The notes beneath the pieces are model-generated. The model saw nothing but the letters and a program-made list of their open reading frames with translations. It was not told the DNA's origin and did no database searches. A stretch of 13,511 nucleotides of DNA. It comes from Escherichia coli. Lineage in GTDB: Bacteria > Pseudomonadota > Gammaproteobacteria > Enterobacterales > Enterobacteriaceae. The DNA is taken from NCBI RefSeq assembly GCF_003334315.1, contig NZ_QOWR01000081.1; one strand, 5' to 3'. The translations under genes and the position numbers were made by a program. Positions 1,011-5,584 of the stretch are shown piece by piece (position 1 is the stretch's first letter; the number at the start of each line of letters is the position of its first letter).

Positions 1011-2402
1011 ATGACAACCGAAACGCGTTCCCTCTATAGTCAACTTCCGGCTATTGATCGCTTATTGCGCGATAGCTCCTTCCTTTCTTTGCGTGATACT
1101 TATGGTCACACCCGCGTGGTGGAATTGTTGCGTCAGATGCTCGACGAAGCGCGAGAAGTGATTCGTGGCAGCCAGACGCTGCCTGCGTGGTGTGAAAACT
1201 GGGCGCAAGAAGTCGATGCCCGGTTGACGAAAGAAGCGCAGAGCGCGCTGCGTCCGGTGATCAACCTGACGGGAACCGTGCTGCATACCAACCTTGGGCG
1301 AGCTTTACAGGCGGAAGCCGCGGTGGAAGCCGTTGCGCAGGCTATGCGTTCGCCAGTGACCCTCGAGTACGATCTGGACGACGCTGGACGCGGACATCGC
1401 GATCGTGCGCTGGCGCAGTTGCTGTGCCGCATTACGGGGGCGGAAGATGCCTGTATCGTTAATAACAATGCGGCGGCGGTGTTATTGATGTTGGCGGCCA
1501 CTGCCAGCGGGAAAGAGGTGGTGGTTTCTCGCGGCGAACTGGTGGAGATTGGCGGCGCGTTTCGTATTCCCGATGTTATGCGTCAGGCAGGCTGCACCCT
1601 ACACGAAGTAGGGACCACCAACCGCACGCACGCGAATGATTATTGTCAGGCGGTGAATGAAAATACCGCACTGTTGATGAAAGTACATACCAGTAACTAC
1701 AGCATTCAGGGGTTCACCAAAGCGATAGATGAAGCGGAACTGGTGGCGCTCGGCAAAGAGCTGGATGTTCCCGTAGTGACTGATTTAGGCAGTGGCTCGC
1801 TGGTCGATCTTAGCCAGTACGGTTTGCCGAAAGAGCCAATGCCGCAGGAGTTGATTGCGGCGGGCGTCAGTCTGGTGAGTTTCTCCGGCGACAAGTTGTT
1901 AGGCGGGCCGCAGGCAGGAATTATTGTTGGTAAAAAAGAGATGATCGCCCGCCTGCAAAGCCACCCGCTGAAGCGTGCATTACGCGCGGATAAAATGACC
2001 CTCGCGGCGCTGGAAGCCACGTTGCGTCTTTATTTACACCCTGAAGCTCTGAGTGAAAAATTACCGACCCTGCGCCTGCTTACCCGCAGCGCAGAGGTCA
2101 TTCAAATCCAGGCACAACGTTTACAGGCTCCCCTTGCCGCACATTACGGCGCGGAGTTTGCGGTACAGGTTATGCCATGTCTTTCGCAGATTGGCAGTGG
2201 TTCGCTGCCGGTTGATCGCCTGCCGAGCGCGGCATTAACGTTTACACCCCATGATGGACGCGGTAGCCACCTTGAGTCATTAGCCGCCCGCTGGCGTGAA
2301 TTGCCAGTGCCGGTGATTGGTCGTATTTATGACGGACGATTGTGGCTGGATTTACGCTGCCTTGAAGATGAGCAACGGTTTTTGGAGATGTTGTTGAAAT
2401 GA
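1011..2402 (+). CDS. selA: L-seryl-tRNA(Sec) selenium transferase (selenocysteine synthase)
   Basis: 463-aa ORF, translation [22 protein letters not shown]... matches SelA as I recall it; stop overlaps selB start (ATGA). Confidence 0.93.
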
Positions 2403-4243
2403 TTATTGCGACTGCCGGACACGTTGACCACGGCAAAACAACCTTATTGCAGGCGATTACTGGCGTAAATGCTGACCGTCTGCCGGAAGAAAAAAAGCGC
2501 GGCATGACCATCGATCTCGGCTATGCCTACTGGCCGCAGCCGGATGGTCGCGTGCCTGGTTTTATCGACGTACCCGGTCATGAAAAGTTTCTTTCCAACA
2601 TGCTGGCGGGCGTTAGTGGTATCGATCACGCGCTGTTGGTGGTGGCGTGCGATGACGGCGTGATGGCACAGACCCGTGAGCATCTGGCGATTTTGCAGCT
2701 GACCGGTAACCCGATGCTGACAGTGGCGCTGACCAAAGCCGATCGCGTGGACGAAGCGCGTGTTAATGAGGTTGAACGCCAGGTAAAGGAGGTGCTGCGG
2801 GAATACGGTTTTGCTGAGGCAAAACTGTTTATCACCGCAGCAACCGAAGGTCGGGGAATTGATGCCCTGCGCGAGCATCTGCTTCAGTTGCCGGAACGCG
2901 AGCACGCCAGCCAACATAGTTTCCGCCTCGCTATTGACCGCGCATTTACCGTAAAAGGTGCCGGGCTGGTCGTCACCGGTACGGCGTTAAGCGGGGAAGT
3001 GAAGGTAGGCGATTCACTCTGGCTGACTGGTGTAAATAAACCGATGCGTGTACGTGCGCTGCATGCGCAAAACCAGCCAACAGAAACCGCCAATGCCGGG
3101 CAGCGTATCGCGCTTAACATCGCGGGTGATGCGGAAAAAGAGCAGATTAACCGTGGCGACTGGCTGCTTGCCGATGTGCCGCCAGAGCCGTTCACACGGG
3201 TGATTGTCGAGCTTCAAACCCATACACCGCTGACCCAGTGGCAGCCGCTGCATATTCACCACGCCGCCAGCCACGTTACGGGACGCGTTTCGCTGCTGGA
3301 AGATAACCTTGCCGAGCTGGTGTTCGACACGCCGCTGTGGCTGGCGGATAACGATCGCTTAGTGCTGCGCGATATCTCGGCCCGCAACACGCTGGCGGGG
3401 GCGCGTGTGGTGATGCTTAACCCGCCGCGTCGCGGTAAACGTAAGCCGGAATATCTGCAATGGCTGGCGTCTCTTGCACGGGCGCAGAGCGATGCCGATG
3501 CGTTATCTGTTCATCTGGAACGCGGCGCGGTTAACCTTGCGGATTTCGCCTGGGCGCGCCAGCTCAACGGCGAAGGGATGCGCGAATTGCTGCAACAGCC
3601 TGGCTATATTCAGGCTGGTTATAGCTTGTTGAATGCGCCGGTTGCCGCTCGCTGGCAACGGAAAATTCTCGACACATTAGCGACTTATCATGAGCAACAT
3701 CGCGATGAACCTGGGCCTGGGCGCGAACGTCTGCGACGTATGGCGTTGCCAATGGAAGATGAAGCGCTAGTACTGTTGCTGATTGAAAAGATGCGCGAAA
3801 GCGGCGACATCCTCAGTCATCACGGTTGGCTGCATCTGCCGGATCACAAAGCGGGCTTCAGCGAAGAGCAGCAGGCCATCTGGCAAAAAGCAGAGCCGCT
3901 GTTTGGTGACGAGCCGTGGTGGGTGCGTGATCTGGCAAAAGAGACGGGTACCGACGAGCAGGCAATGCGCCTGACGCTACGCCAGGCGGCGCAGCAAGGA
4001 ATAATTACCGCGATCGTCAAAGATCGTTATTACCGTAACGATCGGATTGTCGAATTTGCCAATATGATCCGCGATCTCGATCAGGAGTGTGGTTCAACCT
4101 GCGCGGCGGATTTCCGCGATCGCTTAGGCGTAGGCCGAAAGCTGGCAATTCAGATTCTGGAATATTTTGACCGCATTGGCTTTACGCGTCGTCGTGGAAA
4201 TGATCATTTATTGCGCGACGCATTATTATTTCCGGAAAAATAA
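2399..4243 (+). CDS. selB: Selenocysteine-specific translation elongation factor SelB
   Basis: 614-aa ORF with GTP-binding P-loop [11 protein letters not shown] at N-terminus, DxxG (DVPGHE) and NKxD-like (TKAD) motifs; C-terminal winged-helix extension; ends ...LLFPEK as in E. coli SelB. Confidence 0.93.
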
Positions 4244-4296
4244 GGAAATGATTAATTAATTTTTAAAATAAATTAATACAAATTTCTTATGATTTT

Positions 4297-4338
4297 AAAA
4301 AAAGCACATTGTTTAATGAATACAATGTGCTTTTTATT
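4297..4338 (+). terminator. Rho-independent terminator of selAB (A-run upstream, T-run downstream, potentially bidirectional)
   Basis: AAAAAAA-GCACATTG-(loop TTTAATGAATA)-CAATGTGC-TTTTTATT; perfect 8-bp stem at 4304-4311 / 4323-4330 followed by T-run 4331-4338. Confidence 0.6.
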
Positions 4339-4432
4339 AGATTAATTTTGATAATCAATAATAATGATCATGTTTTCGAATGAAAATCCTCAGTAAGCTG
4401 CCCACCCTTTTTTACACTTTCAGGAGTGTGTT

Positions 4433-5584
4433 ATGGCATCTTCAACTTTCTTTATTCCTTCTGTGAATGTCATCGGCGCTGATTCATTGACTGATGCAAT
4501 GAATATGATGGCAGATTATGGATTTACCCGTACCTTAATTGTCACTGACAGTATGTTAACGAAATTAGGTATGGCGGGCGATGTGCAAAAAGCACTGGAA
4601 GAACGCAATATTTTTAGCGTTATTTATGATGGCACCCAACCTAACCCCACCACGGAAAACGTCGCCGCAGGTTTGAAATTACTTAAAGAGAATAATTGCG
4701 ATAGCGTGATCTCCTTAGGCGGTGGTTCTCCACACGACTGCGCAAAAGGTATTGCGCTGGTGGCAGCCAATGGCGGCGATATTCGCGATTACGAAGGCGT
4801 TGACCGCTCTGCAAAACCGCAGCTGCCGATGATCGCCATCAATACCACGGCGGGTACGGCCTCTGAAATGACCCGTTTCTGCATCATCACTGACGAAGCG
4901 CGTCATATCAAAATGGCGATTGTTGATAAACATGTCACTCCGCTGCTTTCTGTCAATGACTCCTCTCTGATGATTGGTATGCCGAAGTCACTGACCGCCG
5001 CAACGGGTATGGATGCCTTAACGCACGCTATCGAAGCATATGTTTCTATTGCCGCCACGCCGATCACTGACGCTTGTGCACTGAAAGCCGTGACCATGAT
5101 TGCCGAAAACCTGCCGTTAGCCGTTGAAGATGGCAGTAATGCGAAAGCGCGTGAAGCAATGGCTTATGCCCAGTTCCTTGCCGGTATGGCGTTCAATAAT
5201 GCTTCTCTGGGTTATGTTCATGCGATGGCGCACCAGCTGGGCGGTTTCTACAACCTGCCACACGGTGTATGTAACGCCGTTCTGCTGCCGCATGTTCAGG
5301 TATTCAACAGCAAAGTCGCCGCTGCACGTCTGCGTGACTGTGCCGCTGCAATGGGCGTGAACGTGACAGGTAAAAACGACGCGGAAGGTGCTGAAGCCTG
5401 CATTAACGCCATCCGTGAACTGGCGAAGAAAGTGGATATCCCGGCAGGCCTACGCGACCTGAACGTGAAAGAAGAAGATTTCGCGGTTCTGGCGACTAAT
5501 GCCCTGAAAGATGCCTGTGGCTTTACTAACCCGATCCAGGCAACTCACGAAGAAATTGTGGCGATTTATCGCGCAGCGATGTAA
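4433..5584 (+). CDS. yiaY: Iron-containing (group III) alcohol dehydrogenase
   Basis: 383-aa ORF, AGGAG 7 nt upstream of ATG; translation has Fe-ADH signatures ([14 protein letters not shown]-binding glycine motif, histidine-rich metal site ...[16 protein letters not shown]...). Position between selB and aldB as in K-12. Confidence 0.9.

Follow-up and report, generated by a model that had tools for sequence, protein, structure and literature searches.

The selB-yiaY intergenic region of Escherichia coli: the selAB terminator and a probable H-NS/StpA-silenced, anaerobically induced FNR-type promoter of yiaY

The window analyzed in this study is a 13,511-nucleotide stretch of the Escherichia coli chromosome in which yibF (305-913), selA (1011-2402), selB (2399-4243), yiaY (4433-5584), and aldB follow one another in this order, all on the + strand. 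yiaY is annotated as an L-threonine dehydrogenase. The selB-yiaY intergenic region (4244-4432, + strand) is 189 bp long and lies inside published H-NS ChIP-chip regions. A first-pass annotation had described it as approximately 190 bp of more than 80% A+T, which contained the selAB terminator and carried Fur-box-like hexamer repeats upstream of a gene for an iron-dependent alcohol dehydrogenase. The gap is AT-rich, but this figure was slightly too high, since 76.2% of the positions in 4244-4432 and 80.3% of those in 4244-4400 are A or T; the lowest G+C fraction of any 100 nt was 0.14. The gene that follows does belong to the iron-dependent alcohol dehydrogenase family, and the 22-mer regarded as Fur-like, GATAATCAATAATAATGATCAT, was located exactly at 4350-4371. 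The Shine-Dalgarno sequence AGGAG (4422-4426) and the yiaY ATG at 4433 (together 4422-4435, + strand) close the region.

The flanks of the gap also showed some features of their own. The 3' end of selB carries seven GATC sites within 107 bp (window 4012-4118; sites at 4012, 4022, 4040, 4066, 4073, 4079, and 4118). This group appears to be the "selB Dam site cluster" of a 2025 preprint, which reported dam-dependent RNA polymerase peaks as well as a bound protein. An IHF ChIP-chip region is located just upstream of the cluster, at about window 3492-3860. In strain 2017.15.02CC (L003 2595-3700), IS1 is found approximately 55 bp after the selB stop codon, and the gap, yiaY, aldB, and part of yiaL are missing, indicating that the locus is dispensable in that strain.

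The selAB intrinsic terminator occupies 4299-4335 on the + strand and is bidirectional in appearance. Its GC core consists of GCACATTGT (4304-4312) and ACAATGTGC (4322-4330), separated by a loop of 9 nt, and an A-run before the core pairs with a T-run after it. The hairpin had a folding energy of -19.1 kcal/mol (z = -5.4), and none of 200 shuffled sequences folded equally well. When Escherichia, Citrobacter, and Kluyvera were compared, compensatory changes were found at 6 of the 15 stem pairs; Pseudocitrobacter has an unrelated hairpin at the same position. A simple terminator scan missed the structure because its loop is 9 nt long. The stable GC-cored hairpin, the U-run, and the conserved structure agree with the earlier placement of the selAB terminator in the gap. 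In its GC core, its A-run and T-run flanks, and its compensatory conservation, the hairpin resembles other bidirectional Rho-independent terminators, and nothing about it is unusual.

Between the selB stop codon and the terminator lies a near-perfect, AT-only palindrome, ATTAATTAATTTT / AAAATAAATTAAT (4251-4277). The adjoining block AATTAATACAAAA (palindrome and block together, window 4251-4283) was nearly invariant in Escherichia, Citrobacter, and Pseudocitrobacter, where it was more conserved than most of the yiaY promoter; the Citrobacter version reads ATTAATTCA-N11-TGAATTAAT. This block could be a protein-binding site or a single-stranded part of a 3'-UTR-derived RNA.

The region downstream of the terminator was considered together with the published behavior of yiaY. 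In the ChIP-chip data of Myers et al. (2013; Table S3), H-NS-enriched regions, 2176 bp long under anaerobic and 1605 bp long under aerobic conditions, extend from the 3' part of selB across the gap into the 5' part of yiaY. Their v2 coordinates are 3755039-3757215 and 3755059-3756664, corresponding to about window 3068-5244 and 3619-5224, respectively; the coordinates of that study were converted via MG1655 v3, with exbB/metC serving to verify the v2-to-v3 offset of 1977. In K-12, yiaY was untranscribed in the wild type and in dam/dcm mutants. In Table S11 of Myers et al. (2013), where its neighbors are glpABC, ttdA, and yfiD, yiaY is listed with an O2-dependent change seen only in the hns stpA double mutant. 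Its fold change of 0.153 corresponds to approximately 6.5-fold higher expression under anaerobic conditions in the hns stpA strain and is an O2 effect, not an fnr comparison. In EPEC, overexpression of Ler, an H-NS antagonist, increased yiaY expression 5-9 fold. The locus is thus AT-rich and ChIP-enriched, silent in the wild type, and altered in expression when H-NS is removed or antagonized, as is characteristic of H-NS-silenced loci. The first-pass annotation had itself cautioned that AT-rich DNA easily looks Fur-like and might be H-NS-bound; this reservation was well founded, as the H-NS regions cover the gap and yiaY is silent in K-12 unless hns and stpA are deleted.

Evidence for oxygen control comes from a second organism as well. 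In Shigella flexneri, yiaY expression increased by 3.18 log2 units (9-fold) under anaerobic conditions and decreased by 2.73 log2 units (about 6.6-fold) in an fnr mutant, although this fnr effect could be indirect. Neither yiaY nor selB appears in the FNR peak lists of Myers et al. (2013; Tables S5 and S7) for the wild type and the hns stpA mutant, and the predicted FNR-site list of the same study does not include yiaY either. Only 63 of the 207 FNR ChIP peaks of that study coincide with an above-threshold PWM site, implying that weak sites can be occupied in vivo.

Sequence conservation pointed to FNR at the level of the site. The only long invariant block between the terminator and the ribosome-binding site was GATCAT(A/G)TTTT (4366-4376), within which the single GATC (Dam) site of the whole gap is found. 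GATCAT was invariant in all 10 aligned sequences from five genera, including Escherichia, Citrobacter, Pseudocitrobacter, and Kluyvera. This conserved element forms the 3' end of the 22-mer described above (TGATCAT) and corresponds to an FNR half-site rather than to a Fur hexamer. To score such sites, an FNR PWM was derived from the 63 ChIP-bound sites of Myers et al. (2013; Table S6), which themselves score 11.8-21.3 bits. A site of at least 11.8 bits was detected in 31 of 78 windows upstream of yiaY orthologues, compared with 19 of 5888 equal-sized control windows (0.3%) from the same loci; the E. coli gap contained none of this quality.

The positions of these boxes were similar in distant genera. 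In Proteus, Serratia, Hafnia, and Rahnella, the distance to the ATG was 75-83 nt, and the corresponding E. coli 14-mer is at -75. Boxes were found at -78 in Proteus penneri (TTGATGATGATCAA, 17.2 bits), at -77 in Proteus hauseri (TTGACAGTGATCAA, 13.4 bits), at -83 in two Rahnella species (11.9 and 13.3 bits), and at -102 in two Xenorhabdus species (15.6 and 17.2 bits); those of Serratia silvae (TTGTGATAGATCAT at -78, 9.6 bits) and Hafnia (TTGAGGAAGATCAG at -75, 9.8 bits) scored lower. Aliivibrio and Vibrio carried boxes of 11.8-17.1 bits at about -77 to -87, and Idiomarina carried TTGATTCAGATCAA (19.4 bits) at about -77; the positions in these three genera are approximate because the start codon had to be extrapolated from a protein match that started only at residue 3 or 4. 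A box was also present where selB is not the upstream neighbor, indicating that it belongs to yiaY. As judged by these PWM matches, yiaY orthologues across the Gammaproteobacteria show strong candidate FNR/Anr boxes whose distance from the start codon hardly varies. A different arrangement was observed in Pluralibacter gergoviae (L027), in which yiaY directly follows an aldehyde-dehydrogenase gene after a GC-rich spacer and has no AT-rich promoter, suggesting that the order relative to aldB has been rearranged and that yiaY is probably co-transcribed.

The positional equivalent of these strong boxes in E. coli is the degenerate FNR box ATAATAATGATCAT (4358-4371; 5.3 bits). When the sequences were anchored on the box, ATAATAATGATCAT (at -75) was in register and had kept the right half GATCAT, while the left half-site had decayed to RNAAT/RNAAC, compared with TTGAT, across the Escherichia/Citrobacter/Kluyvera clade. 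A second FNR-like 14-mer, TTGATAATCAATAA (4348-4361; 7.0 bits), has a good left half. It is specific to E. coli and is lost in a divergent E. coli allele described below, and its center lies about -51.5 from the predicted start, a non-canonical position for activation. The E. coli FNR-like 14-mers scored 5.0-7.6 bits, compared with a minimum of 11.8 bits for bound sites, and shuffles of the gap reached 7.0 bits 19% of the time; a box could therefore not be called from the E. coli sequence alone.

A putative -10 hexamer, TAAGCT (4394-4399, + strand), lies 22 nt after the box. In most of the genera compared, a TAnnnT hexamer was found 20-22 nt 3' of the box: TAAGCT in E. coli, TATGCT in Citrobacter, TAATGT and TAGTGT in Serratia, TATCGT in Hafnia, and TAAGAT and TAAGCT in Rahnella. 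The hexamers of Proteus (CATATT) and Xenorhabdus (CACATT) have the form CAnATT and start with C, not T. These positions would place the yiaY transcription start at approximately 4406 and the box center at -41.5, which is the geometry of a class II FNR promoter; a limited literature search found no mapped yiaY start. No + strand sigma-70 promoter was detected in the region by a promoter scan, which fits an activator-dependent promoter. A palindrome with 5-4-5 geometry, TTTTC-GAAT-GAAAA (4373-4386), is located downstream of the degenerate FNR box and ahead of the predicted -10 hexamer. The window strain, K-12, and E. albertii have it without mismatch; it had one mismatch in the divergent allele and no counterpart outside Escherichia (e.g., in Citrobacter).

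Several other candidates were considered and rejected. TTGATA (4348-4353)-N17-TATTTT, considered as a K-12 promoter, was not conserved: TTGATA is missing from the divergent allele, and the key second position of TATTTT is G in the window strain and in E. albertii. The box at 4348-4361 combined with GAAAAT (4382-4387) as the -10 element was specific to E. coli and out of register with the boxes of the orthologues. Sites for CRP, ArcA, and IHF, a Cra site, and an ARG box were poor matches by eye, and yiaY is absent from the supplements of an ArcA ChIP/expression study.

The terminator, the H-NS occupancy, the silence of yiaY in K-12, its anaerobic induction without H-NS, its FNR dependence in Shigella, and the FNR boxes of its orthologues are the observations from which our interpretation starts. 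We consider that the gap probably combines the selAB terminator with an H-NS/StpA-silenced, anaerobically induced yiaY promoter of the class II FNR type. An H-NS/StpA filament over this activator-dependent promoter would keep yiaY switched off in laboratory E. coli. In its ancestral form, the promoter would have comprised an FNR box (TTGAT-N4-ATCAA), a spacer of 20-22 nt, a weak TAnnnT -10 hexamer, and a leader of approximately 27 nt, an arrangement that Proteus, Xenorhabdus, Rahnella, Vibrio, and others appear to have retained. The distal half-site would have decayed in Escherichia, Citrobacter, and Kluyvera, so that the proximal GATCAT alone survives there under strict conservation. With the distal half-site decayed, FNR control in these genera is expected to be weak or conditional and visible only where H-NS silencing is relieved. 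We infer that the E. coli 14-mer ATAATAATGATCAT is a functional remnant of the ancestral box; positional orthology together with the expression data suggests that FNR acts directly in E. coli.

A serious rival, although we consider it less likely, is that yiaY has no dedicated oxygen regulator in E. coli. The gap would then be H-NS-silenced AT-rich DNA with a weak sigma-70 promoter, and the FNR and anaerobic effects would be indirect. Such a reading would agree with the lack of a reported FNR peak at yiaY even without H-NS and StpA, with the non-significant FNR score in E. coli, and with the loss of the left half-site throughout Escherichia, Citrobacter, and Kluyvera. In addition, the conserved block of this clade, GATCATATTTT, runs 5 nt past the FNR half-site and could be a core promoter element (e.g., a -35 region) or the site of another factor. 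However, the invariant GATCAT is in register with intact FNR boxes in many genera, at the same distances from the ATG and the -10 hexamer, yiaY expression in Shigella depends on FNR by about 6.5-fold, and the anaerobic induction persists in the hns stpA mutant. The small proportion of FNR peaks with an above-threshold site (63/207) also means that a low score does not preclude occupancy in vivo.

The proposed FNR-type promoter can be compared with known systems. Like the H-NS-masked FNR promoters of "category 7" in Myers et al. (2013), such as hlyE and ttdR, the yiaY region is AT-rich, lies within an extended H-NS region, is anaerobically induced only in the hns stpA mutant, and carries an FNR-type box near the predicted -41.5 position. 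Unlike these promoters, yiaY has no reported unmasked FNR peak, and its E. coli box retains one half-site (5-7.6 bits, compared with at least 11.8 bits). A similar picture was obtained with class II FNR promoters such as narG, nirB, yfiD, and focA, in which TTGAT-N4-ATCAA is centered at -41.5. The yiaY geometry, calculated from a predicted start, is alike in its box, its spacing of 20-22 nt, its weak -10 hexamer, and its lack of a recognizable -35 element, and the yiaY boxes of Proteus, Xenorhabdus, Vibrio, and Idiomarina are near consensus (about 13-21 bits). In contrast, Escherichia, Citrobacter, and Kluyvera have RNAAT/RNAAC in place of the distal TTGAT.

The Fur-like sequence was scored with a symmetrized 19-bp PWM (15.6 bits) whose training set was the top site of each of 16 canonical Fur-regulated promoter regions of K-12 (fepA-fes, fepD-entS, fepB-entC, fhuA, fur, fiu, fhuE, tonB, cirA, exbB, fecI, ryhB, sodA, sufA, fhuF, and feoA). 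The 16 training sites score 7.7-24.0 bits, most of them above 11. Two overlapping Fur-like 19-mers in 6-bp phase were found at 4338-4362, namely 4338-4356 (12.5 bits) and 4344-4362 (AATTTTGATAATCAATAAT, 13.8 bits). The pair contains one perfect 7-mer half-site, TGATAAT. As for the reported GATAAT hexamer repeats, one perfect GATAAT is present, but the next units are CAATAA and TAATGA. In dinucleotide shuffles of the same 189 bp, the probability of a maximum of at least 13.8 bits was 0.047, and that of two sites of at least 12 bits in 6-bp phase was 0.007, the latter test having been chosen after the data were seen. A 265-kb sample of K-12 sequence, chosen on purpose to be rich in Fur targets, had 25 positions that reached 13.8 bits, of which approximately 4-5 were outside known targets; with so few non-target positions, the score of the gap is not low against the genome. 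The PWM comparison proposed in the first-pass annotation thus gave a divided answer: the score is not low against K-12 sequence, but the composition-corrected p value is about 0.05, and the frame originally suggested (4350-4368), six bases downstream of the best frame, scored 5.4 bits. The Fur resemblance of the gap marginally exceeds that expected from composition alone.

Compared with the 19-bp Fur box GATAATGATAATCATTATC, in its 7-1-7 or hexamer-array form, the gap has a perfect TGATAAT half, 13 of 19 consensus matches, and two overlapping frames 6 bp apart. It differs from a genuine Fur box in that its second half is weak, it is not conserved, it lies upstream of the core promoter, and the tables consulted report no in vivo occupancy or regulation at yiaY. 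The pair is located at about -68 to -44 of the predicted promoter (-62 to -44 for the 13.8-bit site) and does not overlap the -35/-10 region. Repressing Fur boxes usually cover the -35/-10 elements.

Conservation was examined within E. coli and beyond. The gap is dimorphic in E. coli: 1336 of 5411 complete genomes (approximately 25%) were only 80-90% identical over 4150-4520, with nearly identical coding sequence on both sides (window 4244-4432 compared with L002 695-884). In the divergent allele, the changes are concentrated on either side of the terminator and in the Fur-like segment, and those in the hairpin stem are compensatory. In one representative of this allele, the word TTGATAATCAA has become TTAATAAACGG, and the best Fur score, 9.6 bits, lies elsewhere in the gap. 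E. albertii, four Citrobacter species, and Kluyvera have kept the selB-yiaY synteny, and their best Fur scores were 5.9-8.7 bits; the PWM detected no Fur site at the orthologous position in the E. albertii, Citrobacter, and Kluyvera gaps. The 13.2-bit Fur match of Pseudocitrobacter, at -143, is unrelated and in a non-orthologous position.

Published Fur data were then consulted. A Fur pan-regulon study combined ChIP-exo with RNA-seq of fur mutants in nine E. coli strains of phylogroups A, B1, B2, D, and E under iron-replete and iron-starved conditions, and reported 1322 sites and 469 target genes. Neither the ChIP-exo peak tables of the nine strains nor the 469-gene pan-regulon, all obtained in aerobic experiments, include yiaY, and none of the MG1655 ChIP-exo coordinates falls within the selB-yiaY gap. 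In the two strains inspected, W3110 and W, the only nearby Fur peak was inside selA, 2.6 kb away. The W3110 peak, which was assigned to selAB (3879776-3879788), corresponds to about window 1621-1633, where the PWM score was only 6.0 bits (GCGAATGATTATTGTCAGG at 1632); the ChIP-exo table mentions selB eight times, and no MG1655 coordinate matches the selA peak. A second study reported 596 Fur ChIP-seq sites and 560 differentially expressed genes by RNA-seq. yiaY, selB, and aldB do not occur in the available portion of its supplement; these experiments were also aerobic, and yiaY is barely expressed aerobically. The Fur ChIP and fur-mutant data that had been recommended as a check therefore offered no entry for yiaY in the tables consulted, which for the second study comprise that portion of the supplement.

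A Fur operator conferring iron control on yiaY is not supported by a marginal PWM match that is unconserved, lies upstream of the -35/-10 region, and has no ChIP or regulon entry in the tables consulted. We judge the Fur-like 19-mer to be a lineage-specific by-product of the AT-rich sequence around the word TTGATAAT, not an operator. That Fe2+-Fur binds 4338-4362 and makes yiaY iron-responsive, by repression or, in view of the upstream location within H-NS-bound DNA, by anti-silencing as for ftnA, appears very unlikely to us. The 13.8-bit site and its 12.5-bit partner do equal the weaker training sites (fepA-fes, tonB, exbB, feoA, and fur), few positions outside known targets score as high in K-12 (approximately 4-5 in 265 kb), the 6-bp-phased pair is rare in shuffles (P = 0.007), and it includes a perfect TGATAAT half-site. 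However, once composition is corrected for, the P value of the best single site is 0.047, and the phased pair was tested post hoc. Moreover, yiaY has no entry in the nine-strain ChIP-exo data, the pan-regulon, or the available part of the second supplement, the site is missing from the divergent E. coli allele and from the E. albertii, Citrobacter, and Kluyvera gaps at the orthologous position, and the pair is clear of the predicted -35/-10 region. Because the Fur experiments were aerobic, a condition in which the promoter is covered by H-NS and off, a conditional role of Fur remains conceivable.

One such role can be formulated, although its probability is even lower. At ftnA, Fur acts by an anti-silencing mechanism. 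In lineages carrying TTGATAATCAA, the Fur-like double site (-68 to -44) might be a recent conditional anti-silencer that displaces H-NS as at ftnA and enables the decayed FNR half-site. Fe2+-Fur would be more active anaerobically. If this were true, expression of yiaY, whose product is an iron-dependent enzyme, would require iron as well as anoxia, and aerobic ChIP would miss the interaction. It is likewise extremely unlikely that the gap codes for an sRNA or a cis-acting regulatory RNA instead of providing protein-binding DNA: the conserved AT-rich block directly 5' of a strong terminator has the anatomy of 3'-UTR-derived sRNAs, but an Rfam scan of 3900-4800 with permissive E-values returned sub-threshold chance matches only (best 22.7 bits against a gathering score of 55), the MG1655 annotation lists no ncRNA at this gap, and such an RNA would cover 4251-4335, leaving the Fur-like segment downstream of the terminator and outside it.

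The H-NS/StpA-silenced, FNR-type promoter is thus our preferred reading of the yiaY upstream region, and the tempting annotation of yiaY as an iron- or Fur-controlled gene is removed as unsupported. Nothing in this model challenges current understanding. It offers a testable, site-level proposal for a gene without annotated regulation, in the form of a Gammaproteobacteria-wide class II promoter of the FNR type, and the assignment of an FNR site to yiaY appears not to have been annotated previously. The locus also provides a small example of regulatory-site decay and of AT-rich, H-NS-bound DNA that mimics Fur boxes. The model may plausibly account for the silence of yiaY in K-12, its anaerobic inducibility in the absence of H-NS, and its FNR dependence in Shigella.
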